DNA of 64,000 nucleotides from a virus: IMG/VR virus record IMGVR_UViG_3300031760_000017. The stretch is one strand, 5' to 3'. The position numbers were made by a program, and so were the translations under genes. Each line of letters opens with the position of its first letter. Within the stretch, counting starts at the first letter, position 1. Below are positions 5,753 to 60,204 of the stretch, one piece after another. Below the pieces are notes generated by a model that was given only the letters and a program-made list of their open reading frames with translations, did not search any database and had not been told where the DNA came from.

Positions 5753-5755
5753 TAT

Positions 5756-28276: not shown

Positions 28277-29851
28277 ATGATTTAGAAAATTGTAACTACT
28301 GTAATTCCAATTTTAGTACCTATTGTAATAATCGCTCTCTTATGCCTTGCAATTACCTTAATTGGTAAAGCTATGTATAAGAAATCTCCGCCAAATATGG
28401 CAATGGTTGTAACTGGACCTTTTGGAAATAAAACAATTATTGGTAAAGGTTGTTTTGTAATTCCTATTCTTGAAAGAGTAGACTTCCTTTCTCTTGAAAA
28501 TATGCAATCAGACTTTACATCTAAAGATGACATTCCTACAAAAGATGCCATCAATATTTTAGTAGATGCAGTTGCTAACTTTGCAATTTCAACTGATCCG
28601 AAGACTCTTCCAAAGGCTGCTGCAAAATTCTTAGGTAAGAAACCAAAGCAAATTGAGGAAATTGTAAGACCGGTTCTTGAAGGTAATATCCGAGAAATTA
28701 TTTCTCAAACAACTTTAAAAGAACTTATTCAAGGTGATAAAAAGAAACTTGCAGAAAGAATTATTGAAAATGTTACTCCCAATCTTCAAGATATGGGTCT
28801 TGAATTAACAACTTTTAATATTCAGAATTTCAAAGATAAAAATGGAGTAATTGATAACTTAGGTCTTCAAAACACAGTCCAAATTAGTAAAGATGCTGCT
28901 ATTTCTAAAGCAAAAGCTGAACAGGAAATTGCAGTTGCGGAAGCTAATGCGCGAAAAGCTGCTAATGAAGCTCAAATTGCTGCGGAAACTGAAATTGCAG
29001 AAAGAGAAAATAAGCTTACAATTAAAAGATCTGAATTAAAAAAGCAGGAAGATATTAAGAAAGCAGAAGCTGATGCTGCTTATGAAATTCAGCAACAGGA
29101 ACAGCAAAAAATAATCGAAATTGCAACTGCCGATGCAAAACTTGCAAGACAAGAAAAAGAAATTGATTTGCAAGAACGTGAAGTTAGTATTAGAGAGCGT
29201 AAACTTGAAGCTGAAGTTAAGAAAACGGCAGAAGCTAGAAAATACGCTGCTCAACAGGAATCTGATGCAAATCTTTATGCAACTCAAAAGAGTTCTGAAG
29301 CTGATTTATTTGAAAGACAAAAGAAAGCTGAAGCTGAACAGTATGAAGCAGAACGACGTGCGGAGGCTCAAAAAGCTAAAGCTGAGGCTGAAAAATTTGC
29401 AAAAATTCAGGAAGCAGAAGCTATTAAAGAAACTGGTACTGCGGAAGCTGAAGCTATTAAAGCTAAAGGTACCGCAGAAGCTGAGGCTATTAGAGCTAAG
29501 GCGACCGCTGAAGCTGAAGGTTTGTTAAAGAAAGCTGAAGCTATGGAAAGATATGGTGAAGCAGCTCGTGAACAGCAAAAACTTGACGCGTTAAAGATTT
29601 ACTTTGAACAGCTACCCGCAATTGCTGAAGCTATCGGTTCAGGCTATGCAAATGTTGAAAAGATGGTTATGTTCGGAGATGATTCTTCAAAATTAAGTGG
29701 TAATATCATTAATAATATTACTCAAGTTTCTGAGGGTCTTAATGAATCACTTGGTATTGATTTAAAATCTTTAATGTCTGCTTTTATCGGTGGAAAGATT
29801 GTTGATGCAAATCATACTGAAGTAACTGAAGTAACTAAAGAAGAAGAATAA
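28277..29851 (+). CDS. flotillin / SPFH (band-7) family membrane protein, 524 aa, TAG at codon 3
   Basis: AAGGAG RBS, then ATG 28277, ATT, TAG. The N-terminal TM helix IVTTVIPILVPIVIIALLCLAI is followed by an SPFH core and a long A/E/K-rich coiled coil. The track's ATG at 28373 lacks an RBS and would drop the TM helix. Confidence 0.75.
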
Positions 29852-29861
29852 TAATTTATGA

Positions 29862-29913
29862 CAAGGAGAATATAAAAATTCTCCTTGTTTTTTTTATAAA
29901 TTTTTATTATAAT
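29862..29913 (+). promoter_or_regulatory. fused terminator-promoter cassette
   Basis: Hairpin CAAGGAGAAT-ataaaa-ATTCTCCTTG. Its terminal TTG starts the -35 TTGTTT (29885-29890). The T-run forms the 17-nt spacer. TATAAT at 29908-29913. Confidence 0.65.
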
Positions 29914-29945
29914 ATATTTATAAAAATGAAAAGGAAATAAAAAAT

Positions 29946-30371
29946 ATGTTATCAGATAAAGCAATGTTAGAACTATGTCGATTGTACTATGATGAAGAGA
30001 CTTTCGAACATGTAAAAAGAGTCGCTGAATATGCTAAGGATATTTATAAACTTTATGATTATTATAAAGCAGGTGAGGAAAGATCTATTTATCATTTAGC
30101 CTTAGCTCACGACTTATATGAAGATACCGATATTTCACAAAATACTTGGTTTGATAATAATTTTGAAGCCAATCTTCAATTATTAACGAAAGACGAAGAT
30201 ATATCATACAACGATTATATTGCTAAAATTCGCAAAGAAGCAGTGATACCTACTTATAAACCTGCTTATATTGTAAAATTAGCAGACATGAAAGATCATC
30301 TTTCTCAAACTGAAACTTTAACAGAAGAACTTAAAAATAAATATATTTCTGCTATGAAATATTTACTTTAA
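29946..30371 (+). CDS. HD-domain protein, small alarmone ((p)ppGpp) hydrolase-like
   Basis: FEHVKRVA, LALAHDLYEDT and VKLADMKDHL match the HD_4 / RelA-SpoT hydrolase pattern (H...HDxxED...D). Confidence 0.6.
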   Translation: MLSDKAMLELCRLYYDEETFEHVKRVAEYAKDIYKLYDYYKAGEERSIYHLALAHDLYEDTDISQNTWFDNNFEANLQLLTKDEDISYNDYIAKIRKEAVIPTYKPAYIVKLADMKDHLSQTETLTEELKNKYISAMKYLL

Positions 30372-30386
30372 AAAAGGAAAATAAAA

Positions 30387-30527
30387 ATGGGAATACTTGA
30401 TGTTATTCTAATTATAAATATTGTACTTAAACTTTTAAATTTAATTACCTGGAGCTGGTGGGCAGTCCTCTGGCCGCTTTGGGTAATTTTAATAATTGCT
30501 TGTCTTCTTATTTTTGGAGATGATTAA
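30387..30527 (+). CDS. small membrane peptide (46 aa), paralog 1
   Basis: AAGGAAAATAAAA then ATG. MGILDVILIINIVLKLLNLITWSWWAVLWPLWVILIIACLLIFGDD. Confidence 0.55.
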   Translation: MGILDVILIINIVLKLLNLITWSWWAVLWPLWVILIIACLLIFGDD

Positions 30528-30553
30528 TATTATAAATAAAGGAGAAATAAAAA

Positions 30554-30700
30554 ATGCTTGAAACGATTTTAATTGTAAATATTATACTTAAATTTTTTAA
30601 CTTAATTAATTGGAGTTGGAGCGCAACTCTTTGGCCGCTATGGGCGGAATTAATAATTATAGCTATTTTTTGGCTCAGTGGAAATCTTGATAAAATTTAA
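30554..30700 (+). CDS. small membrane peptide (48 aa), paralog 2
   Basis: AAGGAGAAATAAAA then ATG. MLETILIVNIILKFFNLINWSWSATLWPLWAELIIIAIFWLSGNLDKI. Shares the NLIxWSW..LWPLW core with paralog 1. Confidence 0.55.
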   Translation: MLETILIVNIILKFFNLINWSWSATLWPLWAELIIIAIFWLSGNLDKI

Positions 30701-30706
30701 AATTAA

Positions 30707-30735
30707 TTGATTTTTTATAAAATTTTTAATATAAT
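30707..30735 (+). promoter_or_regulatory. sigma70-type promoter (TTGATT-N17-TATAAT)
   Basis: -35 at 30707-30712 and -10 at 30730-30735. Confidence 0.6.
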
Positions 30736-30773
30736 TATAATATAAGTTATTAAAGAAAAAAGAGGTAAAAAAT

Positions 30774-40058: not shown

Positions 40059-40856
40059 ATGAAATATATATTAAAAAATGGTTAGTAGATAGAGTCCATT
40101 GATATTGGAAAGGCTAATATCAAAATAGGGCAAAGAAATAATCGACTTACTATTTGTGATAGAGCGCCTAATACAAAATCAAAAAAAGCACGTATAATTT
40201 GTTTATGTGATTGTGGACAATACACAGTTATAAATCATCAAGATTTTAAAAATGGACAAGTTAAAAGTTGTGGATGCTATGCAAAAGAAATACATGCTGA
40301 AATAGGAAGAAAAACTGCTATAGATTTCACTCAATCATAGTACAATAATAATCCATTTTATGAATATATTGAACCTACAGATGTTAGATTTAATTGGAGT
40401 AAACAAGTAGTATGGAAGGTTAAATGTAGAAAATGTAATAAAGAATATTTAGCAATTCCTAAAGAATTAATTTCTATAAATAATAATAAGCGTATGAATC
40501 CTTGTAATTGTTGGAAAACTTATAGTATTGGAGTTCAACGTATTATTGCAATATTAGAAAAAAATAATATTTCTTATGAATTAGAAAAAAAATTTGATAC
40601 ATGTATTTCACCAAAAGGAAATTGTTTACCTTTTGATTTCTATCTTCCTGATTATAAGATTTTAATAGAATATGATGGACAACAACATTTTAATATAGCA
40701 TTTGGTCAAAATGAAAATAAATTGATTCAACAAAAAAAATATGATAAAATAAAAAATGAATGGTGTAAAAATAATAATATTCATTTAATTAGGATACCTT
40801 ATTATCAAAAAGAAATTACAATTTAGAATTTAATAGGAGAAAAAATTAATGGGTAA
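40059..40856 (+). CDS. PD-(D/E)XK-type endonuclease (free-standing homing-endonuclease-like), 265 aa with TAG=Gln
   Basis: The N-terminal Cys-rich region is followed by FDFYLPDYKILIEYDGQQH...NIHLIRIPY. TAG TAG at codons 9-10. The frame continues through TAG 40824-40826 to TAA 40854-40856, overlapping the gyrB start. Confidence 0.55.
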
Positions 40857-42562: not shown

Positions 42563-43595
42563 ACGAGTTAGTCTGGCCCTTAGCTACTTTTCCGCGGATC
42601 GGCGGGGTTGCCTAAAATAGGCAGCTAACGAGGTAGTCTTCTATTTAAAATTTTGGACATTTTAGGATAATCTGAAATGTGAAATTTTTATAATATATAG
42701 AAGATAATCTCGTGGGAAAAAATTACGATATTATCTCCAAAAAAATTAAAGGAGATAAAATAATGATAGGAATTTATAAAATTACAAATTTACTAAATGG
42801 TCATAGTTATATTGGATTATCTACTCATATTGAAGATAGATGGGAATATCATAAAAATCCATATAACTGGAATAGAGAAAAGAATAAATCTTTATACAAA
42901 GCAATTTTAAAATATGGTATCGAAAATTTTTCTTTTGAAATACTTGAATAGTGCTTACCAGAACAGTTAAGTGAAAAAGAAAAATACTATATTGAAAAAT
43001 ATAATACATATCATGCTGGTTATAATATGACTGCCGGCGGTGAAGATAATCAAGGTGAAAGTCATCCAAGACACAAATTAACAAAAGAAGATGTGATAGA
43101 TATTAGAACTAGATATGACAATCTTGAAAGAAAAAAAGATGTGTATTAGTTATATAAAGATAGAATTGGAGAAAGTGGTTTTTCTAAAATTTGGAAGGGC
43201 AACACTTGGACTTCTATAATGATGGAAGTTTACACTCCTTAGAATAAAAAATATCATTTACATGATACGGCAAATAAAGGCTCTCAAAATGGAAGAGCTA
43301 GATTAACTGAATAGGATGTAAGAGCTATTCGATTAAGAAGAAAGAACGGCGAAAAATTATCTGATGTATATGCAAATTATAAACATCTTTTAACCAAAGG
43401 GTCTTTTACGAATATTTGGTCGTATCAAAATTGGAAAAATATCGTAGTTTAAACCTGTATCGACTATCCCCTTTGTCGGGGAGTACATCTCTTATTGATA
43501 CAGAGATGGAAACAGTAGCGCCCTATGACTACAGTAAATGCGTTAGTACGAGGGCAAGAAATAGTCAGTGCCATTGGTAACAATGGATTAACACG
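42563..43595 (+). mobile_element. group I intron (1033 nt) carrying a GIY-YIG homing endonuclease gene
   Basis: The 5' exon ends in U (42562) and the intron ends in G (43595). Exon AAGGGU (42557-42562) pairs with intron GCCCUU (42576-42581), giving the U-G wobble at the splice site (P1). Both intron ends are G+C-rich and structured. Splicing restores frame and motif. Confidence 0.75.
42763..43452 (+). CDS. GIY-YIG homing endonuclease (intron-encoded), 229 aa with TAG=Gln
   Basis: AAAGGAG RBS. GIYKITNLLNGHSYIGLS...R...H...YGIENFSFEILE-TAG-C. Four in-frame TAGs. TAA at 43450-43452. Confidence 0.75.
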
Positions 43596-46684: not shown

Positions 46685-48691
46685 ATGAAAAGCAAAATAG
46701 ATATTGGTATTTTAATTAAAAAACTTAATAAAGCTACTAAAGCCTATGATGCAGGGCATCCTATTATGACAGATAGAGAATGGGATGACCTTTATTTTGA
46801 GCTAGTCGAATGGGAAAGACAAACTGGTATTATTTTTGCAGATTCTCCAACCCAAAAAATTCATTTTGAAAAAGTTTCTGAATTAAAAAAAGTGAAACAT
46901 AATCATCTTATGCTTTCTCTTAATAAAACAAAAGATATTAAAGAAGTGTTAGATTTTGTAAAAAATAATCCTTGGATTGCTATGGCAAAAATGGATGGTT
47001 TAACATGTTCGCTTAGATACCTTCATGGAGAACTTGTTTCTGCAGAAACTCGCGGGGATGGTCTTATTGGTGAAGATGTCACCCATAATGCAAAGGTTAT
47101 TTCATCTATCCCTCAAAAAATTAATTACACTGATGAATTAATTGTTGATGGAGAAATCATTTGTACTTATGAAGATTTTAAACCATTTGAAAGAACTTAT
47201 AAAAATCCTAGAAATTTTGCAAGTGGAAGTATTAGATTATTAGATTCAAAAGAATGTCAAAAAAGACATCTTACTTTTGTTGCCTGGGATTCTTTTTGTG
47301 ATAATAAAATTTATGATGAGTATTTAAATATTCCTTATAATATTCAGATTACATTGTCTTTAAAATTACAAGTTCTTCAAGATTTAGGTTTTACAGTGGT
47401 TCCTCATTTGGTTGATGTAGAGGAATGGTCTGTTGAAGACGCTATATCAATAATTAGAGACAAATATCATACTATCTATCCTATTGATGGCGTTGTAATT
47501 AAATACAATGATATAGATGATTATAATGCGGCTGGCCGCACAGAACACCATTTTAAAGGCGGTTTAGCATATAAGTTTTATGATGAACTTTATGATACTC
47601 GTTTAAAATATATTCAGTGGACAATGGGAAGAACAGGCGTCCTTACTCCAGTGGCAGTTTTTGACCCCATTGATATTGATGGTTCAACAGTAGAAAGAGC
47701 GTCACTTCATAATGTTAGTGTTATGAGAGAGATTCTCGGTGATTGTGCTTATCGCGGTGAACCGTTAAAAATTGCTAAAATGAATCAAATTATTCCACAG
47801 GTCATAGAAGCTGGTCCAAAATATGATTATGGATATGTAATAAGTCATGGTGGAGTTTCCGCAAATGATGTTATTGAAAGATGTCCAATTTGTTATGGAG
47901 AGGTTGAATATAAAGAAAGTTCGGAAGGGGTCATAAATGCATACTGCACAAATCCAAAGTGTGAAGGAAAACTAGTTAATAGACTTGATCACTTTTGTGG
48001 GAAAAAAGGATTAGACATTAAAGGGATTTCAAAAGCAACTCTTGGAAAATTTATTGAATGGGGCTGGGTAGAAAACATAGAAGATTTATATTACATTTCC
48101 GAAAAATTTAGGTCGGACTTCTTACTTAAACCTGGCTTCGGAGTTAAATCAGTTATTAAAATTTTAAATGCAATAGAAGAAAGTAAACATACAACACTTG
48201 ATGCTTTTATTTCTGCTATTGGTATCCCTCTTATTGGACGAGCAGTTGCTAAAGATTTAACTAATTATTTTGAAACTTATGAAGATTTCCGTGATGCTGT
48301 AAAAGATAATTCATATCATTTCTATGATTTAGATAACTTTGGTATAGAAATGGAAAATAGTATTAAGAATTTTGATTACGCGGAAGCTGATAGACTTTCT
48401 AAAATTTTATATATTGAAGCCCCAGTTGTAAGCAACAATCAAATAAATAATAGTCTTTCAGGAAAAACTATAGTCATTACGGGAAAACTTACAAAATTTA
48501 AGAATAGAGCTGAATTGAAATCAGTTATTGAAAAACATGGCGGGAAAGTTACAGACTCAATTTCCGCAAAAACAGATATGTTAATAAACAACGATATAAA
48601 TAGCACATCATCTAAAAATAAAGCCGCAAAAGCACGCAATATACCAATTATAACAGAAACTGATTTTATACAGCTTTATATTGAAAATTAA
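46685..48691 (+). CDS. ligA: NAD-dependent DNA ligase
   Basis: Adenylation motif AKMDGLT, a four-Cys Zn finger CPICYG...CTNPKCEG, HhH repeats and a C-terminal BRCT domain (GKTIVITGKL). Confidence 0.85.
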   Translation: MKSKIDIGILIKKLNKATKAYDAGHPIMTDREWDDLYFELVEWERQTGIIFADSPTQKIHFEKVSELKKVKHNHLMLSLNKTKDIKEVLDFVKNNPWIAMAKMDGLTCSLRYLHGELVSAETRGDGLIGEDVTHNAKVISSIPQKINYTDELIVDGEIICTYEDFKPFERTYKNPRNFASGSIRLLDSKECQKRHLTFVAWDSFCDNKIYDEYLNIPYNIQITLSLKLQVLQDLGFTVVPHLVDVEEWSVEDAISIIRDKYHTIYPIDGVVIKYNDIDDYNAAGRTEHHFKGGLAYKFYDELYDTRLKYIQWTMGRTGVLTPVAVFDPIDIDGSTVERASLHNVSVMREILGDCAYRGEPLKIAKMNQIIPQVIEAGPKYDYGYVISHGGVSANDVIERCPICYGEVEYKESSEGVINAYCTNPKCEGKLVNRLDHFCGKKGLDIKGISKATLGKFIEWGWVENIEDLYYISEKFRSDFLLKPGFGVKSVIKILNAIEESKHTTLDAFISAIGIPLIGRAVAKDLTNYFETYEDFRDAVKDNSYHFYDLDNFGIEMENSIKNFDYAEADRLSKILYIEAPVVSNNQINNSLSGKTIVITGKLTKFKNRAELKSVIEKHGGKVTDSISAKTDMLINNDINSTSSKNKAAKARNIPIITETDFIQLYIEN

Positions 48692-48791
48692 AAAAATTTT
48701 TAATATAATAAGAATAGATGATAAATGAAATAAAATTTATCTTTTATATAAATACATTATAATAAATACATAATTTAAAGGAGAAAAAAAT

Positions 48792-49079
48792 ATGTTAAAG
48801 GACAATAGTAAACTTGTTTTCAATTTTGTTAAGTAGCACGATGGAGAAGATTTTACAGCACAGGATATTGCTGATGCAACTGGTCTTGGAGTAAGACAGG
48901 TCAATGGTATTATTACATCAGCTTTCCAGCGTTATAAGGATAAAGATAAGAATGAAATTCCGCTAATGCAACGTGTTGTAGCTGAAATTGTAGATCCTGA
49001 GACAGGACTTCATAAACCGGTTAAATTCATTCAGCTTACTGATGAAGGTAGAGAATTCGATCCAGATGCAGAGGATTGA
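48792..49079 (+). CDS. small winged-helix-like protein (95 aa), TAG at codon 15
   Basis: AAAGGAG RBS. ...FTAQDIADATGLGVRQVNGIITSAF... Ends at TGA 49077-49079. G+C-richer. Confidence 0.45.
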
Positions 49080-49096
49080 TAATTAAGAAAATTGGG

Positions 49097-49130
49097 AGAG
49101 CTAGATATAAAAATATCTAGCTCTTTTATT
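49097..49130 (+). terminator. intrinsic terminator
   Basis: AGAGCTAGATAT-aaaa-ATATCTAGCTCT followed by a T-run. Confidence 0.75.
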
Positions 49131-49146: not shown

Positions 49147-50091
49147 ATGGTTGTATTAACAATAATAGATATTATTATTTTTTGTGTTGCGATAGTATTA
49201 ATTCATAAAGCTGATTTAAAAAAAGTTAATATCGCTAAATAGCAATAGAAGAAACAACAGTTAATCAATTAGATTAAATAGTTATCTGATACATACAATG
49301 ATTATAATTTAAAAATACAAAACATCCTTCAAGAAACTCAAATTGTTAAAGCTAGAGCTGAAGAAACAACAGCTAATTATATTGCTAATCAAAAACAAAT
49401 AGCACTCGATTATATTAATAATCAATAGCAATTAGCAGAACAAAAAATTAAAGAAATAAATGCTAATACTTAGCAAGAAATTGCGGCAATTCATGAAGAT
49501 CTTCAAAATATTAGGTGTTCTGCCGCACAATAGAAAGAACAAATTCAAAACGAGCTTAATAAACTAAAAGCCTCTTTGAGTGCGGGCGTAGAAGCCCGCC
49601 TTCGCGAACAATAGAAAAAAGATAAAATTAATTTTTATAAACTTTCTATTAGTGATGCGGATTTAGCTGATGTTAAAATGCTAGAAAATTTAAAAGCATC
49701 TTTCCATAAACCTGTTGTTTTAAGTAAACTTATTTGGACTCAATATTTTCAAAAGCAAATGACTGAATTGTGTGATAGAGTACTTGGTAAAAAAACTGTT
49801 TGCGGCATTTATAAAATTACCAATTTATTAACAGAACAATGTTATATTGGTCAAAGTGTTAATATTAGTGATAGATGGAAACAACATTGTAAATGCGGCC
49901 TTGGTATAGAAGCATCAGCTACCAATATTTTATATAATTCAATGCAAAAAGATAAAGTTTGGAATTTTACTTTTGAATTATTATAGGAGTGCCCGCGTAA
50001 TTTACTAAATGAAAAGGAAGCTTTTTGGATTGATACTTATAGTAGTAATATATATGGATTAAATACTATGAAAGGAATTAATAAAAAATGA
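49147..50091 (+). CDS. DUF4041-like coiled-coil protein with C-terminal GIY-YIG/T5orf172-type nuclease domain, 314 aa with TAG=Gln
   Basis: N-terminal TM helix and coiled coil with many TAGs. C-terminal CGIYKITNLLTEQCYIGQSVNISDRWKQH...FELL-TAG-ECPRNLLNEKEAFWI. In frame with track ORF 49678. TGA at 50089-50091. Confidence 0.6.
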
Positions 50092-50942
50092 AATTTTAGA
50101 ATACAGATGTCTGGGGATTTTAGCATGCAATCAGGGGTATGAGAAATCCTAAAAATAGCTGGAATAAAAGTGATAGTCTTTTTGAAATTGCTTATATCGA
50201 ACAAATGGAGGCTGATTGGGAAGTCGCTTCAAGTTATGTCGATGCAAATGAAAAATATGATTTTTAGAGTGAATATGATAAATATTATGAAGCACAAGAA
50301 AAATATGCGGATTGGCTTCTTAAAAATGGTGTTTTAAAAGATCAAAATGAATGTTTTAGTTATGCTTTTATTGGACCAAATGATATGAAACTGGCTCAAA
50401 CTCTTATTAAAGCTGGTCCTGAACACCGAAAATTTCTACGCCAAATCTTTGTATCTGTTGATATTACTGCACCACTTTATTGGTGGAAATAGATGGATCA
50501 ATATAAAATTGGGACAGTCACAGATAGCACATCAACTATGCATAAACTAACGAGTAAACCTATTACTCTTGAAAGTTTTGAAATTGATGATTTTAATCCA
50601 GAAATTGTATATTACGAAATTCTTGATGCTCAAAATGATATTGGTATGCTTGCGGATTTTATAATTGAACAACTTGAATTTCTTCGTCAAAAATATCTTG
50701 AAACAAAAGACAAAAGATATTGGAAAGAATTAGTACGATGGTTGCCTGAAAGCTGGTTACAAAAAAGAACATGGACTGCAAATTATGAAGTTCTTTATTC
50801 TATAGTTTTACAAAGAGGGCATCATAAATTAGAAACAGAATGGGATAAAGGTTTTATACATTGGTGCGCCTCATTGCCATATGCAAAGGATTTGATTTTT
50901 TATGGAGAAGAACGAGAAAAAATATATAATTTATATGCATAA
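50088..50942 (+). CDS. ThyX-like (flavin-dependent thymidylate synthase fold) protein with divergent active-site motif, 284 aa with TAG=Gln
   Basis: ATG overlaps the upstream stop (ATGA). ITAPLYWWK-TAG-MDQYKIGTVTDSTSTMHKL aligns by eye with ThyX ...[25 protein letters not shown], but RHR and SxR are not conserved. A later WTANYEVLYSIVLQRGHH resembles the ThyX C-terminal helix. Confidence 0.4.
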
Positions 50943-51528
50943 AAATAAAATTAATAATAAAATGTATATAGGACAAACTTGCCAAAATCCACCATCAAAA
51001 AGATGGAAACCTTGTAATTATAAAGGATCTTCAAGATTTTATAATGCTATTTTAAAATATGGTTGGATTAATTTTGAACATATTATTTTAAAAAAATGTT
51101 CTTCACTATAGGAAGCAAATTAGTAGGAAAGAAATTTTATTAGTCAATATCAAACTACAAATCCAGAATTTGGATATAATATTATGCCGGGTGGCTCTAA
51201 TAAAGAAATTCCTTTATAGGTTCGAGAAAAAATGTCTAAAAATCATAGAGATGTTAAGGGGAAAAATAATTATTTTTACGGAAAACATTTTAAAGGTAAA
51301 GAACATCCATTTTATGGACAACATCATTCGGATGAAACTAAACAAAAATTAAAAAAATCTTTATTAAATAAAAATGGAAAAGCAGTAAAATGCATTGAAG
51401 AAAATAAAAATTTTCCTTCCGCAAGAGAAGCTGCAAGATATTATAATATGAAAACTTCTAGTCACATTTCTGCATGTTGCAATGGCAAAAGACAAACTGC
51501 TAATAAATTTCATTGGGAATATATTTAA
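50902..51528 (+). CDS. GIY-YIG homing endonuclease (Seg/I-TevI-like, free-standing), 208 aa with TAG=Gln
   Basis: YIIYMHKNKINNKMYIGQT...YNAILKYGWINFEHIIL, then NUMOD3-like repeats (GKHFKGKEHPFYGQHHSDETKQK) and a C-terminal helix-turn-helix-like NFPSAREAARYYN. Its start overlaps the ThyX-like 3' end. Confidence 0.7.
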
Positions 51529-51556: not shown

Positions 51557-51585
51557 TTGAAAAATAAAAAATAAAATGTTATAAT
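51557..51585 (+). promoter_or_regulatory. sigma70-type promoter with extended -10 (TTGAAA-N17-TATAAT, TGT upstream)
   Basis: -35 at 51557-51562 and -10 at 51580-51585. Confidence 0.6.
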
Positions 51586-51626
51586 ATAATTATAAAATGA
51601 AAATTATATTATAAGGGAGACCAAAA

Positions 51627-51788: not shown

Positions 51789-51800
51789 GAGGAATAAGAA

Positions 51801-52181
51801 ATGACTAAAAAAGAAAGATTTATTGAATTTGTTAATGAACTCATGGAAATGGTAGATATAAACGAATGGGATGAGGATGAAAAAAAAGATTGGAAAGATG
51901 CTTTTGATTTTTTTGAAGAACTTAAAAATAATAAAGTAAAAACCGCAAAAGAAATGACTGAAAACGGTACCAAACTTCTTTCTTGGATGCAAGAGAATAA
52001 AGAAAAAATGTCAAATGTCTTTACATCTAAGGAAGCTGCGGAAGGACTTTTCACAAGCGGCCGCTCTATTGCAGGAACCATGAGAAAGTTAGTAAATGAT
52101 GGTTATGTAAAGAAAACTGGTAAAGACCCTGTTCAGTATTCTTTAACTGAAGCTGGAGAAAATTATCAGTTTGACAATTAA
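51801..52181 (+). CDS. winged-helix (MarR-like) DNA-binding protein
   Basis: C-terminal ...FTSKEAAEGLFTSGRSIAGTMRKLVNDGYVKKTG. Confidence 0.45.
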   Translation: MTKKERFIEFVNELMEMVDINEWDEDEKKDWKDAFDFFEELKNNKVKTAKEMTENGTKLLSWMQENKEKMSNVFTSKEAAEGLFTSGRSIAGTMRKLVNDGYVKKTGKDPVQYSLTEAGENYQFDN

Positions 52182-52199
52182 AAAATTTTTTGTTATAAT
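52171..52199 (+). promoter_or_regulatory. sigma70-type promoter (TTGACA-N17-TATAAT)
   Basis: -35 at 52171-52176 (inside the end of the upstream CDS) and -10 at 52194-52199. Confidence 0.6.
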
Positions 52200-52236
52200 A
52201 TAAAAGTAAAGTTGATTTAATTTAAGGAGAAAATTA

Positions 52237-53238
52237 ATGAAAAAGAACGCAAGATTTATTAACACAGAACGAATTGAAGGATATGTTTATAGTACAGGTA
52301 GTAATTTTAATCAGCTTTCTGAAAGAACGACAGGAGAGAATTCTAAACATCCTGGAACAAAGTATATTGCAGGAGACCTCGATATTGCTGTAGATGAAGA
52401 GGGTCTAAATGTAATTACTATTCATTATACATATGCAACACCGACATATGGTAGTGGTCAAGTAAATAATACATATACAGCTCTTAAAAGAATTATTGAT
52501 AATCCAGATAGAACTTGGATTAATGGCGGTAAAGAAAATGCCTTTAAGGTTCAGTGTACTGGAGTTTCTATTGCAATCAATGATTTTATTGGAGCAGATG
52601 GAAAATTCGTTGCCGCAATTAGAAATGAAGGTGGATTTTGTTCTATCGTAAATGAACTTGGTCCAGAAGCAAATAGAAATACTTTCTCTGCTGATATGCT
52701 TATTACAAAAGTTACTCATATTGATGCAGATCCAGATAAGAATATTGAAAATGATTTCACAACAGTTAGTGGAGCAATCTTTGGATATGGAAAAACAATT
52801 CCTGTTCTTCTTCCTGCTTCATTTACAGTTCGTAGCGAAGGTGGTATGAAGTACTTTGAAAATCTTGATGCTACACCTTCAGACCCCATTTTTACAAAAG
52901 TTTGGGGACGTATTAATTGTATGACTATTAAGGTAAAGAAAACTGAAGAATCAGCTTTTGGTGGTGATTATGTTCAGGAGTCTGAGCGTAAAAGCCGTGA
53001 GTACCTTATTACAGGAACAGCAAAAGTACCATATGATTTTGGTGATGAGGAAGTTCTTACTGCTAATGATGTAAGTACAATGAATCAGAATCGTCAGATT
53101 ATGCTTGCAGAAGTTGAAAGCAGACATAAGGAGCGCCAGGCAGAAAAGGCTGCAAATGGAGTAAGCTTTGAAGCTACTACAAAAGCTCCTTCCGCAACAA
53201 AAGCGGCAGGCGTACCTGAGGGTGGATTTGTATTTTAA
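52237..53238 (+). CDS. hypothetical protein (333 aa); its position suggests a ssDNA-binding or recombination partner of the adjacent ATPase
   Basis: Intact G+C-richer ORF with AAGGAG RBS. No motif recognised. Confidence 0.3.
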   Translation: MKKNARFINTERIEGYVYSTGSNFNQLSERTTGENSKHPGTKYIAGDLDIAVDEEGLNVITIHYTYATPTYGSGQVNNTYTALKRIIDNPDRTWINGGKENAFKVQCTGVSIAINDFIGADGKFVAAIRNEGGFCSIVNELGPEANRNTFSADMLITKVTHIDADPDKNIENDFTTVSGAIFGYGKTIPVLLPASFTVRSEGGMKYFENLDATPSDPIFTKVWGRINCMTIKVKKTEESAFGGDYVQESERKSREYLITGTAKVPYDFGDEEVLTANDVSTMNQNRQIMLAEVESRHKERQAEKAANGVSFEATTKAPSATKAAGVPEGGFVF

Positions 53239-53254
53239 TGAGAGGTAATAAATA

Positions 53255-54295
53255 ATGGCAGATATTAATATTTTTAACATCTAGCCGCATCAGGTTAGCC
53301 GTAATTTAAGAGGATATTCAATCTTCTTTTACGGCTAGCCAAAAAGTGGCAAAACAACAACCGCATCTAAGTTTGAAAAGAATCTTCTTTTAGCTTTTGA
53401 AAAAGGTTATAACGCAATTCCAGGAGTTATGGCACAGCCAATTAATAACTGGGCAGAATTTAGAAAAGTTCTTCGTCAGTTAAAAGACCCAAAAGCTAAA
53501 GATATGTTCTATACTATCACTATTGATACTTGTGATATTGCATATGATTATTGCACAAAGTATATTTGTGATAACGCCTTGAGACCTGATGGCGGTTATG
53601 GTGTAGATAGTATTAGTGATATTCCTTTTGGAAAAGGATATAGTCTTGTATCAAAAGAATTTGACGAATGTCTTAGATCTATTGTCATGATGGACTATGG
53701 TCTAATTCTTATCTCGCACGCAACTGATAAAGTTTTTAAAGACGAAGCTGGAAATGAATATAATAAAATCGTTCCAACCTTAGACAAACGAGCCAATAAT
53801 ATTGTTGCGCGAATGGCAGATATTATTGGATACTCAAGAATCGTTACTGATAAAGAAGGTAATAACTTAACAAAACTTTTTATGCGTGGTACACCGAGAT
53901 ATGAAGCTGGTTCTAGATTTAAATATACACCAAATTATATTGATTTTTCTTATGATAATCTTGTTTCCGCCATAAGTGATGCTATTGATAAACAGGCGCA
54001 AGAAGATGGAAAAGAATTTTTCACGGATAAGAAAAACAATCTTTATGAAGATACAACTAAAGACCTTAATTTTGATGAACTTATGAAAAATTGTAATGAT
54101 TTGATTAAGGGAATGATTGATAATAATTCTGAAGAAGTGTTTAAAGAGTTCTATCAACCTCGTATTGTTCAAATTACTGATCGTTATTTGGGCAGAGGTC
54201 AAAAGATGAGTCAGTGTTCAAGAGAACAAGTTGAAGCTTTGTCTTTAATTTATGATGATCTTCTCTTACTTTCCAAAGAGCCTGCTTCAGAATAA
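53255..54295 (+). CDS. AAA_24 / Sak4-like RecA-type ATPase, 346 aa with TAG=Gln
   Basis: AGAGG RBS and ATG 53255, in frame with track ORF 53429. Walker A FFYG-TAG-PKSGKTT. ITIDTCD (Walker B-like). TAGs only at codons 10 and 28. Confidence 0.65.
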
Positions 54296-54309
54296 TTATA
54301 TATTAAAGG

Positions 54310-54357
54310 CTTGTCAAAGTCCGTTCCTTTGACAAGTCTTTTTTTTTATGTTATAAT
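54310..54357 (+). promoter_or_regulatory. fused terminator-promoter cassette
   Basis: Hairpin CTTGTCAAAG-tccgttc-CTTTGACAAG. -35 TTGACA (54329-54334) lies in the 3' arm. 17-nt spacer. TATAAT at 54352-54357. Confidence 0.7.
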
Positions 54358-54387
54358 ATAATAAGAAATTTTTTAAGGAGATTTTTT

Positions 54388-54900
54388 ATGGCTCATAAAG
54401 TAAAATGTTTGTATTGCGGCGAGCAATTTGATCGAGATATTGAACCAACAAAACAAGTCTCCACACGTAGATATGCTCATTTAAAATGCTGGGAAGAACA
54501 TCTTGCAAATATGTCGCAAGAAGAAAAAGACATAGCAGCATTTTATGATTATACTCGACAATTATTTGGAGAAGATTATAATTATGTTTTAACTAAAAAG
54601 TTAGCTGAAAGATATGTAAAAGAAAATCAATATACATATAGTGGAATGTTAAAAACTCTTAAATGGTATTATGAAAAAGAAGGTCATTCACTTGATAAAA
54701 GTAATGGAAGTATTGGTATTATTCCTTATATATATAAACAAGCATTAAATTATTATTATGCACTTTATCAAGCTCAATTAATAAATAAAGAGAAAGATAT
54801 TTCAAACTTTATATTACCAAAAGAAAGAATTATAGAAATAGAATCTCCACGAGTGTATGTACGTCCGCCGCATTTGTGGCTAGAAGAGGAGGATGAATGA
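54388..54900 (+). CDS. hypothetical protein with N-terminal zinc-finger-like motif
   Basis: CLYCGEQF...HLKCWEEH. Intact ORF. Confidence 0.4.
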   Translation: MAHKVKCLYCGEQFDRDIEPTKQVSTRRYAHLKCWEEHLANMSQEEKDIAAFYDYTRQLFGEDYNYVLTKKLAERYVKENQYTYSGMLKTLKWYYEKEGHSLDKSNGSIGIIPYIYKQALNYYYALYQAQLINKEKDISNFILPKERIIEIESPRVYVRPPHLWLEEEDE

Positions 54901-56441
54901 GTTCAAAATATGTAGACGTATCTGCGAATATGCAGGTAATTGGAGATGTTTTTATAAATCCATCTTTATTAGATTTAGAAGATAAATATAAATTCAATGA
55001 ACAAGATTTTCCTCAAGAATTTCATAGAATTTTATTTGGTTCAATTTATAATCTCCATCAATTAGGAGTAAAACAAATTTCAATTGAAGATATAGAAAAA
55101 TATTTAGAACAACGTCCAAAGAAATACGCAATTTATAAAATGAATAAAGGTTCTGAATATTTAGAGAATATTAAACAAATGTGTCAATTGGCGGCATTTG
55201 ATTATTATTATAATCGAATGAAAAAGATGACTCTATTAAGAATGTATAATAAAACCGTTGGAATGAATTTATCTTGGCTTTATGATCCAGATAATATTTT
55301 AGATGTAAAAAAGAAAGAAGCTCAAGAAACATGGTTTGACAATACCCCTATTAATGAAATTGCTAATCTTATTAATGATAAGATAGAAGAAATAAAATCT
55401 AAATATGTTGATAACTCGGAAGATGAAATCATTCAAGCTGGTGATGGTGCATTAGCTCTGCTTGAAAGATTAAGAAAAAATCCTGAAGTCGGTTATCCTT
55501 TATATGGAAGATTAGTTAATACTATTCATCGCGGGGCTAGATTAAAAAAATTTTATTTGCGGTCAGCCGCAACTGGCGTTGGAAAAACTCGTTCCATGAT
55601 TGCAGACGCTTGTTTTATTGCTTGCAATAAACTTTATAATCTTGAGACTAGACAGTGGGAAGATAATGGAACTCGTGAACCAACTGTATTTATTACAACA
55701 GAACAAGAAGAAGATGAGATTCAAACTATGATGATGGCGTTTTTAGCTAATGTAAACGAGTCTCATATTCTTGAAAATACATATGTTGGAGATGAATGGG
55801 AGCGCGTAACCGAGGCTGCAGAAATTCTTGAAAAAAGTCCATTATATATCAAAAAATTACCAGACTTTTCATTACAAGATATTGAAAATACAATTAAAAG
55901 TAATATCCGCAATCATGGAGTAAGATATGTATTCATGGATTATATTCATTCAAGTATGAAAATTCTTAGTGAGATTAGTTCAAAAGCAGGAGTTAAAGGA
56001 TTAAGAGAAGATAATATTCTTTTTATGATAAGTGTAAGAATTAAAGATTTATGTAATCAATATGGTGTATTTGTAATGTCTGCAACGCAGTTAAATTCTG
56101 ACTATGTAACAGCTCAGCAGTACGATCAGAATCTTCTTCGTGGTGCTAAAGCTATTGCTGATAAAATAGATTGTGGCATGATTATGTTACAGACAAGCCA
56201 AGACGACAGAGAATCTTTAAAAAATATTGTTAATTCAATGGGTATCGAAATGCCTGATATAAAAATGTCTGTCTATAAAAATAGACGTGCTAGATATAAA
56301 GATATATTACTCTGGTGTAAATCAGAACGAGGAACCTGTCGTATTAATCCATTATTTGTAACTAATTATAACTATGAATTAATAGATATAGAAGATTTAA
56401 AAATTACAGTAACACCTAAAATAGAAGCAAGCGCATTTTAA
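54897..56441 (+). CDS. DnaB-like replicative DNA helicase
   Basis: Walker A SAATGVGKT, Walker B VFMDYIH and a RecA-like C-terminal domain. Its size and position next to the primase fit this call. Confidence 0.7.
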   Translation: MSSKYVDVSANMQVIGDVFINPSLLDLEDKYKFNEQDFPQEFHRILFGSIYNLHQLGVKQISIEDIEKYLEQRPKKYAIYKMNKGSEYLENIKQMCQLAAFDYYYNRMKKMTLLRMYNKTVGMNLSWLYDPDNILDVKKKEAQETWFDNTPINEIANLINDKIEEIKSKYVDNSEDEIIQAGDGALALLERLRKNPEVGYPLYGRLVNTIHRGARLKKFYLRSAATGVGKTRSMIADACFIACNKLYNLETRQWEDNGTREPTVFITTEQEEDEIQTMMMAFLANVNESHILENTYVGDEWERVTEAAEILEKSPLYIKKLPDFSLQDIENTIKSNIRNHGVRYVFMDYIHSSMKILSEISSKAGVKGLREDNILFMISVRIKDLCNQYGVFVMSATQLNSDYVTAQQYDQNLLRGAKAIADKIDCGMIMLQTSQDDRESLKNIVNSMGIEMPDIKMSVYKNRRARYKDILLWCKSERGTCRINPLFVTNYNYELIDIEDLKITVTPKIEASAF

Positions 56442-56452
56442 GGAGGATATAT

Positions 56453-56650
56453 ATGCAATATGGTAAGTGTTATAAATGTGCCCATAATGGAATTTGCAGA
56501 ATTTTAATGGCAGAAGCCATATCTTTATTAGGATAGTTTGAACGGCTTTTTAATCAAGCACAAACCAGAAAAACAGATAGTAAATGTATTTTACAAATAG
56601 ATTATACTTGTGAAAATTTTGTAGAAAAGAATAGTAATGAAGATGTATAA
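56453..56650 (+). CDS. small Cys-rich protein (65 aa), one TAG
   Basis: AAGGAGG RBS. MQYGKCYKCAHNGICR...LLG-TAG-FERLF... TAA at 56648-56650 overlaps the primase start. Confidence 0.4.
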
Positions 56651-57737
56651 ATATGATAAAGATACTTTAAAAGAAAATTTATCAATAGAAGAAGTATTTG
56701 ATTTAGTTAGTGAATTGGGCGGTGAACCAATTATGGGCAATGGATTGTTCACCGCTCGTACTATCTGTCATGGCGGCGATAGTCACAAACTTTATTATTA
56801 TGAAAATACTCATTTATTTCATTGTTATACAGGATGCGGGGATGCATCATTTGATATATATGATTTAGTTTTAAGAGTAAATAAAACTGCAGGAATTGAA
56901 GGTTTTTCTCTTTCTAGAGCAATATCATTTGTAGCCAGATATTTTGGATATACAGCTGAAATATTTGATTTTGAAGATAATCAAGATGCTAGTGAAGATT
57001 GGAAAATTATTAATAATTTTAAAAGAAATAAAGAAAAATCTCAACCGCAAATTGTTGAATTAAAAACTTATGATGATAAAATATTAAAATATCTACCTCA
57101 TCCCCACATCTTACCGTGGGAACAAGAAGATATAACATTTGATGTAATGGAATCAAGAGGTATATGTTATAATCCAATAAGCGAAGGAATTGTTATTCCA
57201 CATTATGATATAGATAATAGGTTAATTGGAATTCGAGAAAGAACTCTTATAAAAGAAAATGAGATATATGGGAAATATCGTCCTGCTTATATAAAAGGAA
57301 AACTTTATAATCATCCTCTTGGTTTTAATCTATATAATTTAAACAATAGTAAAAAGACTATTTCTATATTTCAAAAGGCAATTGTTTTTGAAGGTGAAAA
57401 AAGTTGTCTTAAATACGCTTCTTATTTTGGTAAAGATTCAGATATTAGTGTAGCATGTTGCGGCAGTAATTTAATTAATTATCAAGTTAAATTATTAATG
57501 TCTTTAGGAGTAAAAGAAATTATAATTGCTTTTGATAAGCAGTTTCAAAAAATTAGAGATAAGGAATGGGAAAAATGGGTTATTAAATTACAAACATTAT
57601 ATAACAAATACGGAAGTTATGTAAGTATTAGTTACATGTTCGATAAAGATAATTTATTAGGGTATAAAGACTCTCCTATTGATTGCGGTAAAGATACTTT
57701 TATACAATTATTTAATGAAAGGATAAGAATAGAATAA
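56637..57737 (+). CDS. DNA primase (zinc-finger plus TOPRIM)
   Basis: CHGGDSHKLYYYENTHLFHCYTGCG (CHC2-type finger). TOPRIM-like VFEGEKSCLK ... IIAFDKQ. Confidence 0.7.
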   Translation: MKMYKYDKDTLKENLSIEEVFDLVSELGGEPIMGNGLFTARTICHGGDSHKLYYYENTHLFHCYTGCGDASFDIYDLVLRVNKTAGIEGFSLSRAISFVARYFGYTAEIFDFEDNQDASEDWKIINNFKRNKEKSQPQIVELKTYDDKILKYLPHPHILPWEQEDITFDVMESRGICYNPISEGIVIPHYDIDNRLIGIRERTLIKENEIYGKYRPAYIKGKLYNHPLGFNLYNLNNSKKTISIFQKAIVFEGEKSCLKYASYFGKDSDISVACCGSNLINYQVKLLMSLGVKEIIIAFDKQFQKIRDKEWEKWVIKLQTLYNKYGSYVSISYMFDKDNLLGYKDSPIDCGKDTFIQLFNERIRIE

Positions 57738-58135
57738 TGAATATAAAAATTTTTATTTTAATAACGATGATTTTTTGTCATATTGTTGATGATTATTATT
57801 TACAAGGTTGGCTAGCTTCAGGAAAACAAAAATCTTGGTGGGATAAAAACGTACCTAATAAAAATGATTATAATGAATTGTATAAAAATGATTATTTAAT
57901 GGCATTATTTTGTCATAGCTTTAGTTGGTCTTTTATGATTCAGTTACCAATTTTTATTTATAGTTTTTGTTATATGAAAACCTTTTTATGGTCTATTCCA
58001 TTATTTATAATAAATTTAATAATTCATATGTATGTAGATGATTTAAAAGCTAATCAGTTAAAAATTAATTTGATTCAAGATCAAATAATTCATTTTATTC
58101 AAATTATTATAACTTGGATAATTTTATTATATTAA
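57737..58135 (+). CDS. polytopic membrane protein (DUF3307-like)
   Basis: Several TM helices. HIVDDYYLQGW motif. Confidence 0.4.
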   Translation: MNIKIFILITMIFCHIVDDYYLQGWLASGKQKSWWDKNVPNKNDYNELYKNDYLMALFCHSFSWSFMIQLPIFIYSFCYMKTFLWSIPLFIINLIIHMYVDDLKANQLKINLIQDQIIHFIQIIITWIILLY

Positions 58136-58140
58136 ATTAT

Positions 58141-58182
58141 AAGAAGAATTGATTTGACAATTCTTCTTTTTTTTGTTATAAT
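58141..58182 (+). promoter_or_regulatory. fused terminator-promoter cassette
   Basis: Hairpin AAGAAGAATTG-atttgac-AATTCTTCTT. -35 TTGACA at 58154-58159 lies in the loop and 3' arm. TATAAT at 58177-58182. Confidence 0.6.
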
Positions 58183-58216
58183 TATAATGGAATATTATAT
58201 TAAAGGAGATTAAAAA

Positions 58217-58426
58217 ATGAACGCTATTGATTTTAATTATCAAAGACTTATGAATCATATTGAAGGATATATGGCTACATATAATATGACACAGCCACCG
58301 ATTTTATTAATGAGTAATGATACATATAAAATTTTTACTGAAAAAAAATTAACATGTTTTGATTATGATTGTAGAGTTGCAATTGATAATTCACTTCCTT
58401 TTAGGGAGGTTGATTTAGTATCATGA
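58217..58426 (+). CDS. hypothetical protein (69 aa)
   Basis: AAAGGAG RBS and an intact ORF. Confidence 0.45.
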   Translation: MNAIDFNYQRLMNHIEGYMATYNMTQPPILLMSNDTYKIFTEKKLTCFDYDCRVAIDNSLPFREVDLVS

Positions 58427-60204
58427 GATATTAGTTAATAAACAAACCAAATGAAAATTTTTCAACAATACAACAAATATTATATAATAGAGGAATTGCA
58501 GAAAATAAAATTTCACATTATATAAATTTATCAGATTAGGATATTAATTCATTTTTATTATTAGGAGAAGAAAATTTGAAAGAAGCCTTATCTCGTATTT
58601 TACATGCAATTACTCTTAAGAAAAAGACTTTAATAATTGTAGACTGCGATTGTGATGGTTATACATCTGCCGCATTATTAATTAATTATTTATATAAAAT
58701 ATTTCCAACTTGGGTTGAAAGCTATGTAGACTGGTATATGCATGATAGTAAACAACATGGATTAAGTGATTGTATTGATTTTATTTTAGAAAGACAATAT
58801 GAATTAATACTTTGTCCCGATTCAAGTAGTAATGATTATGATAAACATCAATTATTAGCTGAAAATAATATTGATGTTGTTGTTTTAGACCATCATTTAG
58901 CTGATCATATTAGTCCAAATGCGGTAATTGTTAATAATCAACTTTCTGATTATCCAAATAAAGAATTATCAGGAGTTGGAATAGTATGGCAATTTTGTCG
59001 ATATATAGATTCAATATTAGAAGTTAATTATGCAGATGATTTTCTCGATCTTGTTGCTCTTGGAAATTGCGGTGATATGATGTCATTACGGTCTTTTGAA
59101 ACTCGTTATCTAATTACAAAAGGATTCAAAAAATAGAATATTAAAAATCCTTTTATTGACTACATGATTGATAAGAACTCATTTCCTTTATCAAAAGCAG
59201 ATTATGTATCATCAAATCCTGATATGGGATGCACATCTATGGGCGCCGCATTTTTTATTGTGCCATTTGTTAATGCTATTACTAGAAGTGGAACAATAGA
59301 ATAGAAAAACTTACTTTTTAATTCTATGTTAAATCATAAAGCTTTTACAGAAGTTATTTCAAACAAGCGTGGACATAAATTAGGTTAGAAAGAAAAATTA
59401 ATTCTACAAGCAATTAGAACAGTTACGAATGTTAAAAATAGACAAACAAGAGCAGAAGATGCAGGATTAACTATGTTAGAAAAAATGATTGAAACTAACC
59501 ATATGCTTAATCATAAAATTCTTTTATTTTTGTTAGAACCTAATAAAATTGATCCTGAAATTCGTGGTTTAATTGCAAATAAATTTATGGCAAAATATCA
59601 AAGACCTTGTTGTTTATTAACTAAAACTAATAGAAATGGTAAAGAAACTTATGAAGGTTCTATGCGTGGATATACAAAAACTGGGATTGATAGTTTTAAA
59701 GAAGTACTTGAACAATGTCCAGGAGTTTTATATGTAGAAGGACATGACAATGCGGCAGGACTTGGTATAGAAGCAAATCATGTAAGTGATTTTCTTTATA
59801 AAATTGATTAGCTTCTTGAAGATGTCTCTGTTGAACCTATTTATAGGATTGATTATAATTTTAATGAAAAAGAAAATAACAATCAGCGCATTTTAGATAT
59901 TGCAGATATGAATGACTATTGGGGTCAAGATGTAGATAGAGCTTATGTAAATATTAATTTCAAAGTTACTGATTCTAATTTTAAAGTTATGAAAAGTAAT
60001 ACTTTAAAATTTAGTTTACCTAACGGATTATCTATTATTAAATTTAATGGAACTGAAGAAGAAATTACTAGATTTACAACAACAGGGTATCTAGAAGTAA
60101 ACGCTATTTGTAAATGCAATAAAAATTAGTGGAATGGTTGCGTCTATCCGCAACTTATTATGTAGGATTTTGAAATTGTGGATTCTGCTAAATACTACTT
60201 TTAA
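58423..60204 (+). CDS. DHH/DHHA1 phosphoesterase (RecJ-like exonuclease), 593 aa with TAG=Gln
   Basis: The ATG overlaps the upstream TGA (ATGA). Track ORFs 58576, 59473 and 59908 share its frame. Motifs IIVDCDCDG, LILCPDSS, VVLDHHL and EGHDNAAG. TAG at codon 4. TAA at 60202-60204. Confidence 0.7.

Follow-up and report, generated by a model that had tools for sequence, protein, structure and literature searches.

The DNA analysed here (IMG/VR record IMGVR_UViG_3300031760_000017; 64 kb, G+C 30%; this whole stretch is termed the window) is part of a ~140-kb phage. The window belongs to an amber-recoded phage, as in-frame TAG codons lie inside conserved full-length genes, and the subject of this analysis is the position of those codons, which in genes that carry few of them lie close to the start. 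With TAG read through, open reading frames (ORFs) of 100 codons or more add up to 23.2k codons, compared with 15.5k otherwise, and ORFs of 1564 and 2888 codons appear. The called genes contain 208 in-frame TAGs, of which 71 lie within an ORF of 2883 codons and 14 in the endolysin gene. Nearly every gene of the window has an AAGGAG-type Shine-Dalgarno (SD) sequence 5-13 nt upstream, so that starts are unusually easy to call. No GenBank phage gave a megablast match to the window at the DNA level; IMG/VR contains a large related family with contigs of 130-200 kb, and the nearest relative, IMGVR_UViG_3300021400_001206 (139.8 kb), is 91-95% identical.

The left part of the window carries the tail of a tRNA array, TAG-rich virion-type genes, a tyrosine recombinase and a RuvC-like gene. 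From 27464 rightward (the right arm) all genes are on the + strand and encode a phosphoesterase, flotillin, an MVP homolog, an RNA ligase and kinase, endolysin and RNase H, together with gyrase B and A, an NAD-dependent DNA ligase, an AAA_24 ATPase, DnaB, a primase-like protein, a RecJ-like protein and an SF1 helicase. The original prediction held that most right-arm genes lack TAG, that several otherwise TAG-free genes carry one or two very early TAGs, and that these act as a translational timer. When checked against the sequence, the TAG positions quoted for flotillin, the endonuclease, the winged helix-turn-helix (wHTH) and ThyX-like proteins, AAA_24, RecJ-like and MVP were all correct (Table 1). 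TAG is absent from 24 of the 36 right-arm genes; the 12 that carry it include several that had been omitted (endolysin, two GIY-YIG endonucleases, and the genes at 50902-51528 and 36764-37036). The description as otherwise TAG-free fits flotillin, wHTH, AAA_24 and MVP but not the endonuclease, ThyX-like or RecJ-like genes, which have two, two and seven further TAGs, respectively.

Pfam agreed with the labels given to flotillin (Band_7/SPFH), MVP (MVP shoulder), AAA_24 and RecJ (DHH/RecJ). The putative PD-(D/E)XK nuclease instead matched HNH/homing-endonuclease families in PHROG, and the ThyX-like protein proved to be phrog_6721, of unknown function and with no Pfam or PDB match. The wHTH label is unverified, as this small conserved protein matched nothing in the domain and family searches.

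All early-TAG genes have an AAGGAG- or GAGG-type SD 7-13 nt before the ATG (in flotillin, AAGGAG at 7 nt), and alignment with orthologs shows an identical start and covers the N-terminal peptide together with its TAG column. As originally described, the flotillin TAG precedes the transmembrane helix and the next ATG (28373) has no SD. No SD-preceded downstream start that would clear all TAGs was found in any early-TAG gene; the TTG at codon 52 of the RecJ-like gene has an AGGAG SD, yet six TAGs lie beyond it.

TAG codons crowd at the starts of TAG-sparse genes

TAG positions were analysed by permutation conditioned on the TAG count of each gene, with placement either uniform or among the Glu or Glu+Gln codons of that gene. 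In the right arm, codons 2-15 contained 10 TAGs versus 2.2 expected under uniform placement or 3.0 with placement among Glu codons (p ~2-4e-4), while within-gene permutation gave no 5′ excess in the TAG-rich left arm. For the family, genes were called likewise in 162 related loci (2.9 Mb) and duplicates were removed; 104 loci were classed as recoded. TAG was enriched 1.5-1.8-fold at codons 2-15, 1.3-1.6-fold at codons 16-30 and ~1.3-fold at codons 31-60, and in genes with at most two TAGs the enrichment was 2.2-2.6-fold. When each codon was compared with its synonymous pool, TAG was the top 5′ outlier among all codons (1.86), followed by AGT (1.26).

In the recoded loci, TAGs of single-TAG genes of at least 150 codons were distributed over the ten deciles of gene length as 33, 14, 5, 5, 6, 3, 2, 3, 6 and 2. 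The share of TAGs in the first decile fell with the number of TAGs per gene, from 42% (one TAG) to 28% (two or three), 14% (four to seven) and 10% (eight or more, equal to uniform), and was 34-42% in TAG-sparse genes. These shares were unchanged after dropping genes with any alternative SD start or requiring an SD of at least 5 nt. A U-shaped profile, with TAG also at 3′ ends, was considered and rejected: it stemmed from loci without demonstrated recoding, in which TAG is a real stop, and vanished in recoded loci. When counted as independent events (183 family-by-position events in 80 protein families), 32 fell within 15 codons versus 10.3 expected (Kolmogorov-Smirnov p = 8e-10), and the median TAG position lay in the first half of the gene in 56 of the 80 families (p = 4.5e-4). 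Genes with at least two TAGs in their first 20 codons numbered 28 versus 11.2 expected. With the window's own clade excluded, sparse genes still had 14 versus 3.9 and 15 versus 5.5, and dense genes showed no excess. Early-TAG enrichment is thus real and family-wide, and the 5′ crowding in the original prediction was significant both in the right arm and across recoded relatives.

Three gene classes are kept across relatives: TAG-free, TAG-dense (with TAGs evenly spread) and TAG-sparse. The TAG-free class comprises gyrase, ligases, DnaB, primase and MVP; DUF2828, MVP, RNA ligase, gyrB, gyrA, DNA ligase, DnaB and primase families have 0-0.3 TAG per 1000 codons. Virion proteins, endolysin and homing endonucleases make up the dense class. 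TAG per 1000 codons was 37.7 for GIY-YIG, 19 for endolysin, 11.5 for phrog_6721, 10 for RecJ-like and 4.7 for AAA_24. In sparse families the TAG shifts yet remains early, as at codon 8 or 16 in the family of the gene at 52237 and at codon 24 in DnaB; 10 of the 12 family 3262 orthologs have it at codon 6.

The homing-endonuclease genes of the window (40059-40856, HNH/PD-(D/E)XK-like; 42763-43452 and 49147-50091, GIY-YIG) all carry TAGs and lie scattered among the RNase H, gyrase and ligase genes. The first of these and the segment 42562-43997 are recent mobile insertions, judged from their absence from the closest genomes.

Table 1. Coordinates and in-frame TAG codons of features in the window. 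Promoters, terminators and transcription units are predicted.
Feature	Position	Strand	In-frame TAG codons	Matches and context	TAG in orthologs
tRNA array, 3′ end	396-1395	+		Gln-UUG, Gly-UCC, Arg-UCU, Cys-GCA	
Promoter copies, perfect TTGACA-17-TATAAT	12758, 52171, 54329, 58154, 63105	+			
Promoter copies, TTGATT or TTGAAA	1398, 30707, 39436, 48681, 51557, 60278	+		30707 is TTGATT-17-TATAAT, before MVP	
Flotillin/SPFH	28277-29851	+	3 (28283-28285), ahead of N-terminal transmembrane helix	Pfam Band_7 1e-21; second cistron behind TAG-free phosphoesterase 27464-28210; terminator-like hairpin 29860-29889	Codon 3 (two orthologs), codon 6 (one) or none
MVP homolog	30774-33263	+	656 (32739-32741)	Pfam MVP_shoulder 5e-23	Column R/K/Q in 50 orthologs; family 0.1 TAG per 1000 codons
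Right-arm gene	36764-37036	+	One TAG		
Endolysin	37098-39383	+	14 TAGs, including 3, 8 and 36 (37203-37205)	Pfam: GH73 glucosaminidase, Amidase_2, two PG_binding_1, SH3; no sigma70-like promoter found upstream	
Homing-endonuclease-like	40059-40856	+	9-10 (TAG-TAG, 40083-40088), 94, 256	PHROG 559, 9084 (HNH/homing endonuclease); mobile insertion between RNase H and gyrB, absent in the four nearest genomes	Same doublet in one relative, single TAG at codon 9 in another
Two GIY-YIG endonucleases		+	9 TAGs and 4 TAGs		
Small conserved protein (wHTH)	48792-49079	+	15 (48834-48836)	Monocistronic; promoter 48681-48709, terminator 49093-49128	Single TAG at codon 15, 19, 20, 28 or 55, or none
phrog_6721 protein (ThyX-like)	50088-50942	+	4 (50097-50099), 12 (50121-50123), 60, 135	N-terminus MKF-E-NT..F-E conserved	TAG and Glu alternate at codons 4, 7 and 12 in 11/21
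Right-arm gene	50902-51528	+	Four TAGs		
AAA_24 unit	52171-54341	+	10 (53282-53284), 28 (53336-53338, within Walker A motif)	TTGACA-17-TATAAT 52171-52199; TAG-free gene 52237-53238; AAA_24 53255-54295; terminator 54305-54341	Codon 9-10, 28 or 47-49 in 15/20; both neighbouring families TAG-free
RecJ-like unit	58154-60204	+	4 (58432-58434), 39 and six more; eight in total	Perfect sigma70-like promoter 58154-58182; TAG-free 69-codon ORF 58217-58426, stop overlapping the RecJ-like start (ATGA); RecJ-like DHH exonuclease 58423-60204	Codons 4, 8, 11, 17, 19

Amino acid, suppressor tRNA and transcription units

TAG columns were examined in 34 ortholog alignments. The majority residue, where it reached at least 60%, was E in 108 columns, Q in 28, K in 25 and D in 19; 60% of TAG columns were variable, and many were a pure alternation of TAG and E. 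A substitution-profile likelihood favoured E over Q, with margins of 33 nats for the 97 window TAGs and 210 nats for the full set of 1077. Endolysin codon 36 aligned with the catalytic Glu of GH73 (FlgJ 'ALETGWG'; in PDB 3k3t that residue is mutated to Ala), and this column was E in 111 of 112 distant homologs, with E at codons 3, 60 and 221 in 84, 89 and 87 of the 112, respectively. TAG columns of the tyrosine recombinase were acidic (D82/E29, E66/D23 and E59/E19). This recombinase is encoded at 7690-8703 (-), is XerC/D-like and contains 10 in-frame TAGs; it is presumably not an early lysogeny integrase, because integrases of other recoded phage clades are reported to avoid recoded stops (Borges et al., 10.1101/2021.08.26.457843). 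Genetic code 15 (TAG = Gln) was rejected on the profile, the GH73 column and the recombinase columns, all of which favour an acidic residue, and TAG most likely encodes glutamate, not glutamine, in this phage family. Database proteins of close relatives have Q at TAG positions, as translation with table 15 would give.

No suppressor tRNA with a CUA anticodon is present within the window. In a related locus that is 94.8% identical to it (L037), tRNA(CUA) was found at 4904-4977 in a 24-tRNA array (Rfam tRNA, 62.8 bits), and by synteny the suppressor is predicted to lie ~3.6 kb upstream of the window start. An Rfam scan near it detected no theta or HDV-like ribozyme, nor any other family. Overall similarity of tRNA(CUA) to phage tRNAs was non-discriminating (0.68-0.75 identity to many isotypes), and only its acceptor stem (C1-G72, G2-U71, C3-5:G68-70) and large D-loop are like those of phage tRNA-Glu and unlike tRNA-Gln (U1-A72, G2-5:C68-71). 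Many Firmicutes lack GlnRS and rely on a non-discriminating GluRS together with GatCAB, and GatCAB requires U1-A72; glutamylation without later transamidation is thus a possible fate of a CUA tRNA with C1-G72. Suppressor tRNAs of several unrelated types occur among relatives: tRNA(CUA) of 88-97 nt is present in seven loci, and occasional ochre or opal suppressors have a UUA (two loci) or UCA (one locus) anticodon. The tRNA(CUA) of distant relatives include forms with long variable arms (Ser/Leu/Tyr-like architecture), and the amino acid inserted at TAG, or the recoded codon itself, may differ between lineages of the phage family.

Surveys of recoded phages list only TAG to Gln (and TGA to Trp) where the code differs from that of the host (10.1101/2021.08.26.457843), and we found no report of amber to Glu for phages. 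If TAG is truly Glu, databases that use table 15 put Gln at catalytic Glu positions, and natural amber reassignments in bacteria and phages would be wider in range than reported.

Motif matches define a recurrent candidate promoter family consisting of TTGAnn, an A/T-rich spacer ttttataaaaatttt, TATAAT and atata. All copies in the window are intergenic and 25-240 nt ahead of a + strand gene, and strong terminator-like hairpins end the units. Copies with a perfect -35 precede the DnaB/primase, AAA_24, RecJ and RuvC units; TTGATT copies occur throughout the tRNA array and before MVP and DUF2828. The AAA_24, RecJ-like and wHTH genes are predicted to lie within sigma70-like, host-type units. Flotillin is probably also in a host-type unit, composed of a divergent promoter region, the phosphoesterase, flotillin and the hairpin at 29860. 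Three early-TAG genes (flotillin, AAA_24 and RecJ-like) follow a TAG-free first cistron, and early-TAG genes would probably be transcribed along with standard-code replication genes. The sigma70-like motif was not found for the virion-gene, endolysin and GIY-YIG/phrog_6721 units, which suggests a separate late transcription system for TAG-dense units.

Other genes of the window include the flotillin and MVP genes (28277-29851 and 30774-33263), the latter for an 829-aa protein with MVP shoulder and vault repeat, and a DUF2828/DUF7788 protein adjoining the tRNA array (1491-3014). Among GenBank phages, the MVP homolog matched solely the unannotated huge-phage records LR756500, LR756501 and LR756503 (42-44% identity). 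A TAG-free, RNA-repair-like set (27464-28210, 33779-35017, 35646-36146 and 36146-36667) comprises an OB-domain RNA ligase, a polynucleotide-kinase-like P-loop protein and two metallophosphoesterases. These genes and the 24-tRNA array look like a joint counter-measure to host defences that cleave tRNA. Inside the TAG-rich virion region, two adjacent genes at 8913-11026 (-) are TAG-free, have a G+C of ~39% versus 30%, gave weak PHROG matches (lectin-like or unknown-function) and have no orthologs among the fetched relatives. They may form a receptor-binding module newly gained from a standard-code source.

A proposed suppressor-dependent gate and its alternatives

The reading that we favour, if by a modest degree, is that an early TAG serves within an operon as a gate or attenuator of translation that is cheap and depends on the suppressor, its 5′ position being the outcome of selection against long truncated products. 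The phage tRNA(CUA) would decode TAG in competition with a UAG-specific release factor of the host. TAG-sparse genes appear to share host-type promoters with TAG-free genes, often on the same mRNA behind a TAG-free cistron, and the gated mRNAs are probably present while suppression is still limiting. At low suppression, ribosomes would terminate after 2-27 residues and the cost would be negligible; with rising tRNA levels full protein would be made, with output proportional to suppressor activity. With efficient suppression, as expected for late genes, TAG would be neutral and evenly placed. With limiting suppression it would persist only where termination leaves a product of a few residues, and placement at the 5′ end would result from selection against long, wasteful or dominant-negative truncated products. 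A cost of fragments is plausible for oligomeric ATPases, scaffolds and nucleases. The profile is steep at the 5′ end rather than flat and sparse, which implies that loss of output is tolerated or useful and that long fragments are not. The key discriminator is the dependence on TAG density, since an effect of the start region would be felt by dense genes too, yet is not.

A timer in the adaptive sense, that is, a selected delay or attenuation, is plausible as a hypothesis; that the delay matters to the phage we infer. In favour of a selected timer are the operon context, the clustering of early TAGs and the fact that certain families appear to have gained them repeatedly. A wider proposal joins two statements: that the amber-to-Glu code is new for phages and bacteria, and that N-terminal TAGs evolved as deliberate intra-operon timer gates despite co-transcription with replication genes, the genes so gated serving recombination, nucleotide metabolism, a membrane scaffold and a small regulator. 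We regard this joint proposal as possible but doubtful. Programmed read-through of the Q-beta A1 or MuLV gag-pol type, in which one leaky stop closes a complete ORF and an extension domain lies beyond it, was considered and rejected, as the TAGs lie 2-27 codons past the start and inside the first domain.

Several observations weigh against the gate. The MVP TAG at codon 656 is the sole sparse TAG of the window that is not early. In a column-level test on the 34 window-anchored families, codons 2-15 gave an odds ratio of 1.4 (p = 0.24, underpowered), and enrichment was spread over about the first 60 codons. Presence of early TAGs is sporadic and differs even among 91-95% identical genomes (wHTH 6/23, flotillin 3/6, DnaB 3/20). 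In recoded loci, the base after an in-frame TAG is C in 27.6% of cases within the first 30 codons versus 15.2% later, whereas behind genuine TAA and TGA stops T stands in 46% of cases and C in 4-8%. Termination is weakest in the TAG-C context, and its enrichment suggests that efficient read-through, once the tRNA is present, has been selected rather than a tight block. Finally, the sigma70-like motif occurs eight times in the L037 tRNA array (825-9936), including 700 nt upstream of tRNA(CUA), and the suppressor is probably transcribed from promoters like those of the gated genes. Suppression may then already exist when the gated mRNAs appear, so that the effect would be small or graded, and the delay may be short, graded or a matter of attenuation, not a late switch.

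Sporadic distribution, shared promoter type and read-through-prone context suggest mere tolerance, the first of the alternatives and a rather unlikely one. Here the suppressor would always be present, and TAG would be a slightly costly Glu synonym left where failed read-through is cheapest, with no regulatory consequence. The rapid turnover and the variability of most early TAG columns are also in its favour. Sporadic presence is compatible both with tolerance of a cheap codon and with selection of a timer. Against tolerance are the deep retention of early TAGs in some families (phrog_6721, family 3262 and AAA_24, with the fractions given above), the excess of genes with at least two TAGs within 20 codons and the TAG-TAG doublet. 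Output would still be suppressor-dependent under tolerance, which differs from the gate only in whether the effect matters. The translational timer of the original prediction is partly supported: the positional skew, its restriction to TAG-sparse genes, its independent recurrence in ~80 families and the host-type promoters stand on one side, and the sporadic presence, shared promoter type and TAG-C context on the other.

A less probable explanation is relaxed constraint acting on young codons, by which TAGs that arose after recoding gather at fast-evolving sites, N-terminal tails among them. The large share of variable TAG columns, to which most early ones of the window belong, agrees with it. 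However, C-terminal ends show no matching accumulation (last decile 3% in single-TAG genes of recoded loci), and the enrichment holds within variable and within conserved columns alike. At codons 4 and 12 of phrog_6721 and codon 3 of the endolysin, TAG also alternates with a conserved Glu, and TAG-dense genes lack the skew.

An effect of the initiation region is more improbable still. It would have codons 2-15 prefer A/T-rich, G-poor and unstructured sequence, and hence TAG over GAG or GAA, and those codons are indeed depleted in G- and C-ending codons (GAG 0.72, GCC 0.61) and mildly enriched in A-ending ones. But codons other than TAG do not approach its enrichment, GAA equals TAG in A/T-richness, and dense genes with the same type of start have no 5′ excess. 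A general N-terminal codon ramp was rejected for the same density dependence and for the same 1.26-fold ceiling on other codons.

Annotation artefact, in which the true starts lie downstream and the early TAG is an upstream in-frame stop, is very hard to credit. Such artefacts do occur in the raw family data: among relatives without recoding, or without demonstrated recoding, single TAGs accumulate at both gene ends, with a first-decile share of 22% and a last-decile share of 42%, and those in the last decile are real stops. But the called ATGs have strong SDs with no SD-preceded alternative downstream, and orthologs with a sense codon at the TAG position conserve the peptide that leads up to and spans it. 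With downstream starts the flotillin transmembrane helix and AAA_24 Walker A motif would be lost, and the family result is the same after excluding genes with alternative starts.

Comparison with known systems

Recoding has been proposed to time the translation of late or lytic genes in a set of phages that also includes crAss-like, Lak, Jade, Sapphire and Garnet phages (Borges et al., 10.1101/2021.08.26.457843). Those phages and the present one are alike in having in-frame TAGs in virion, lysis and homing-endonuclease genes, replication genes mostly in standard code and a phage tRNA(CUA), which here is predicted by synteny, and the underlying idea is the same, that proteins with recoded stops are not made until the code change acts. 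They differ in that TAG is Gln there and lies at Glu positions here, and in that integrases avoid recoding there, whereas the tyrosine recombinase here is rich in TAG. Borges et al. analysed which genes use the recoded codon, and a positional bias within genes is not mentioned. What is newly seen here is a positional rule for sparse recoded stops and a family with apparent amber = Glu; the idea of recoding as a regulator is already published. That idea previously rested on which genes carry the recoded codon, and the rule (sparse codons at the gene start, dense ones anywhere) makes it testable. In practice, gene callers that restart ORFs past an early TAG systematically truncate such proteins.

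Code 15 (TAG to Gln) has been validated by metaproteomics in crAss-like and Lak phages (PMC9523058; PMC8346664). The present phage is like these in that amber is reassigned although the host presumably keeps to the standard code, with a suppressor tRNA of the phage (here predicted by synteny) as the agent. In Lak alignments TAG is mostly Q and sometimes E, whereas E is dominant here, including at an invariant catalytic Glu.

UAG is likewise glutamate in the nuclear code of peritrich ciliates, in which TAA and TAG encode Glu (NCBI table 30). That code differs in being eukaryotic, nuclear and genome-wide, with no competing standard-code host.

A parallel to the positional rule is provided by the bldA-dependent UUA codons of Streptomyces, which have a published 5′ bias explained by selection against wasteful truncated products (PMC10732093). 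Both systems have a rare codon in a minority of genes with a 5′ bias, and in bldA the tRNA is conditionally available. UUA is a sense codon at which ribosomes stall, whereas the phage TAG is a stop at which the peptide is released by a release factor. Moreover, the setting of bldA is bacterial development, with timing set by tRNA maturation as well as transcription, and here it is phage infection. The positional rule nonetheless ties phage recoding to bldA, the sole well-studied case of codon-level developmental control.

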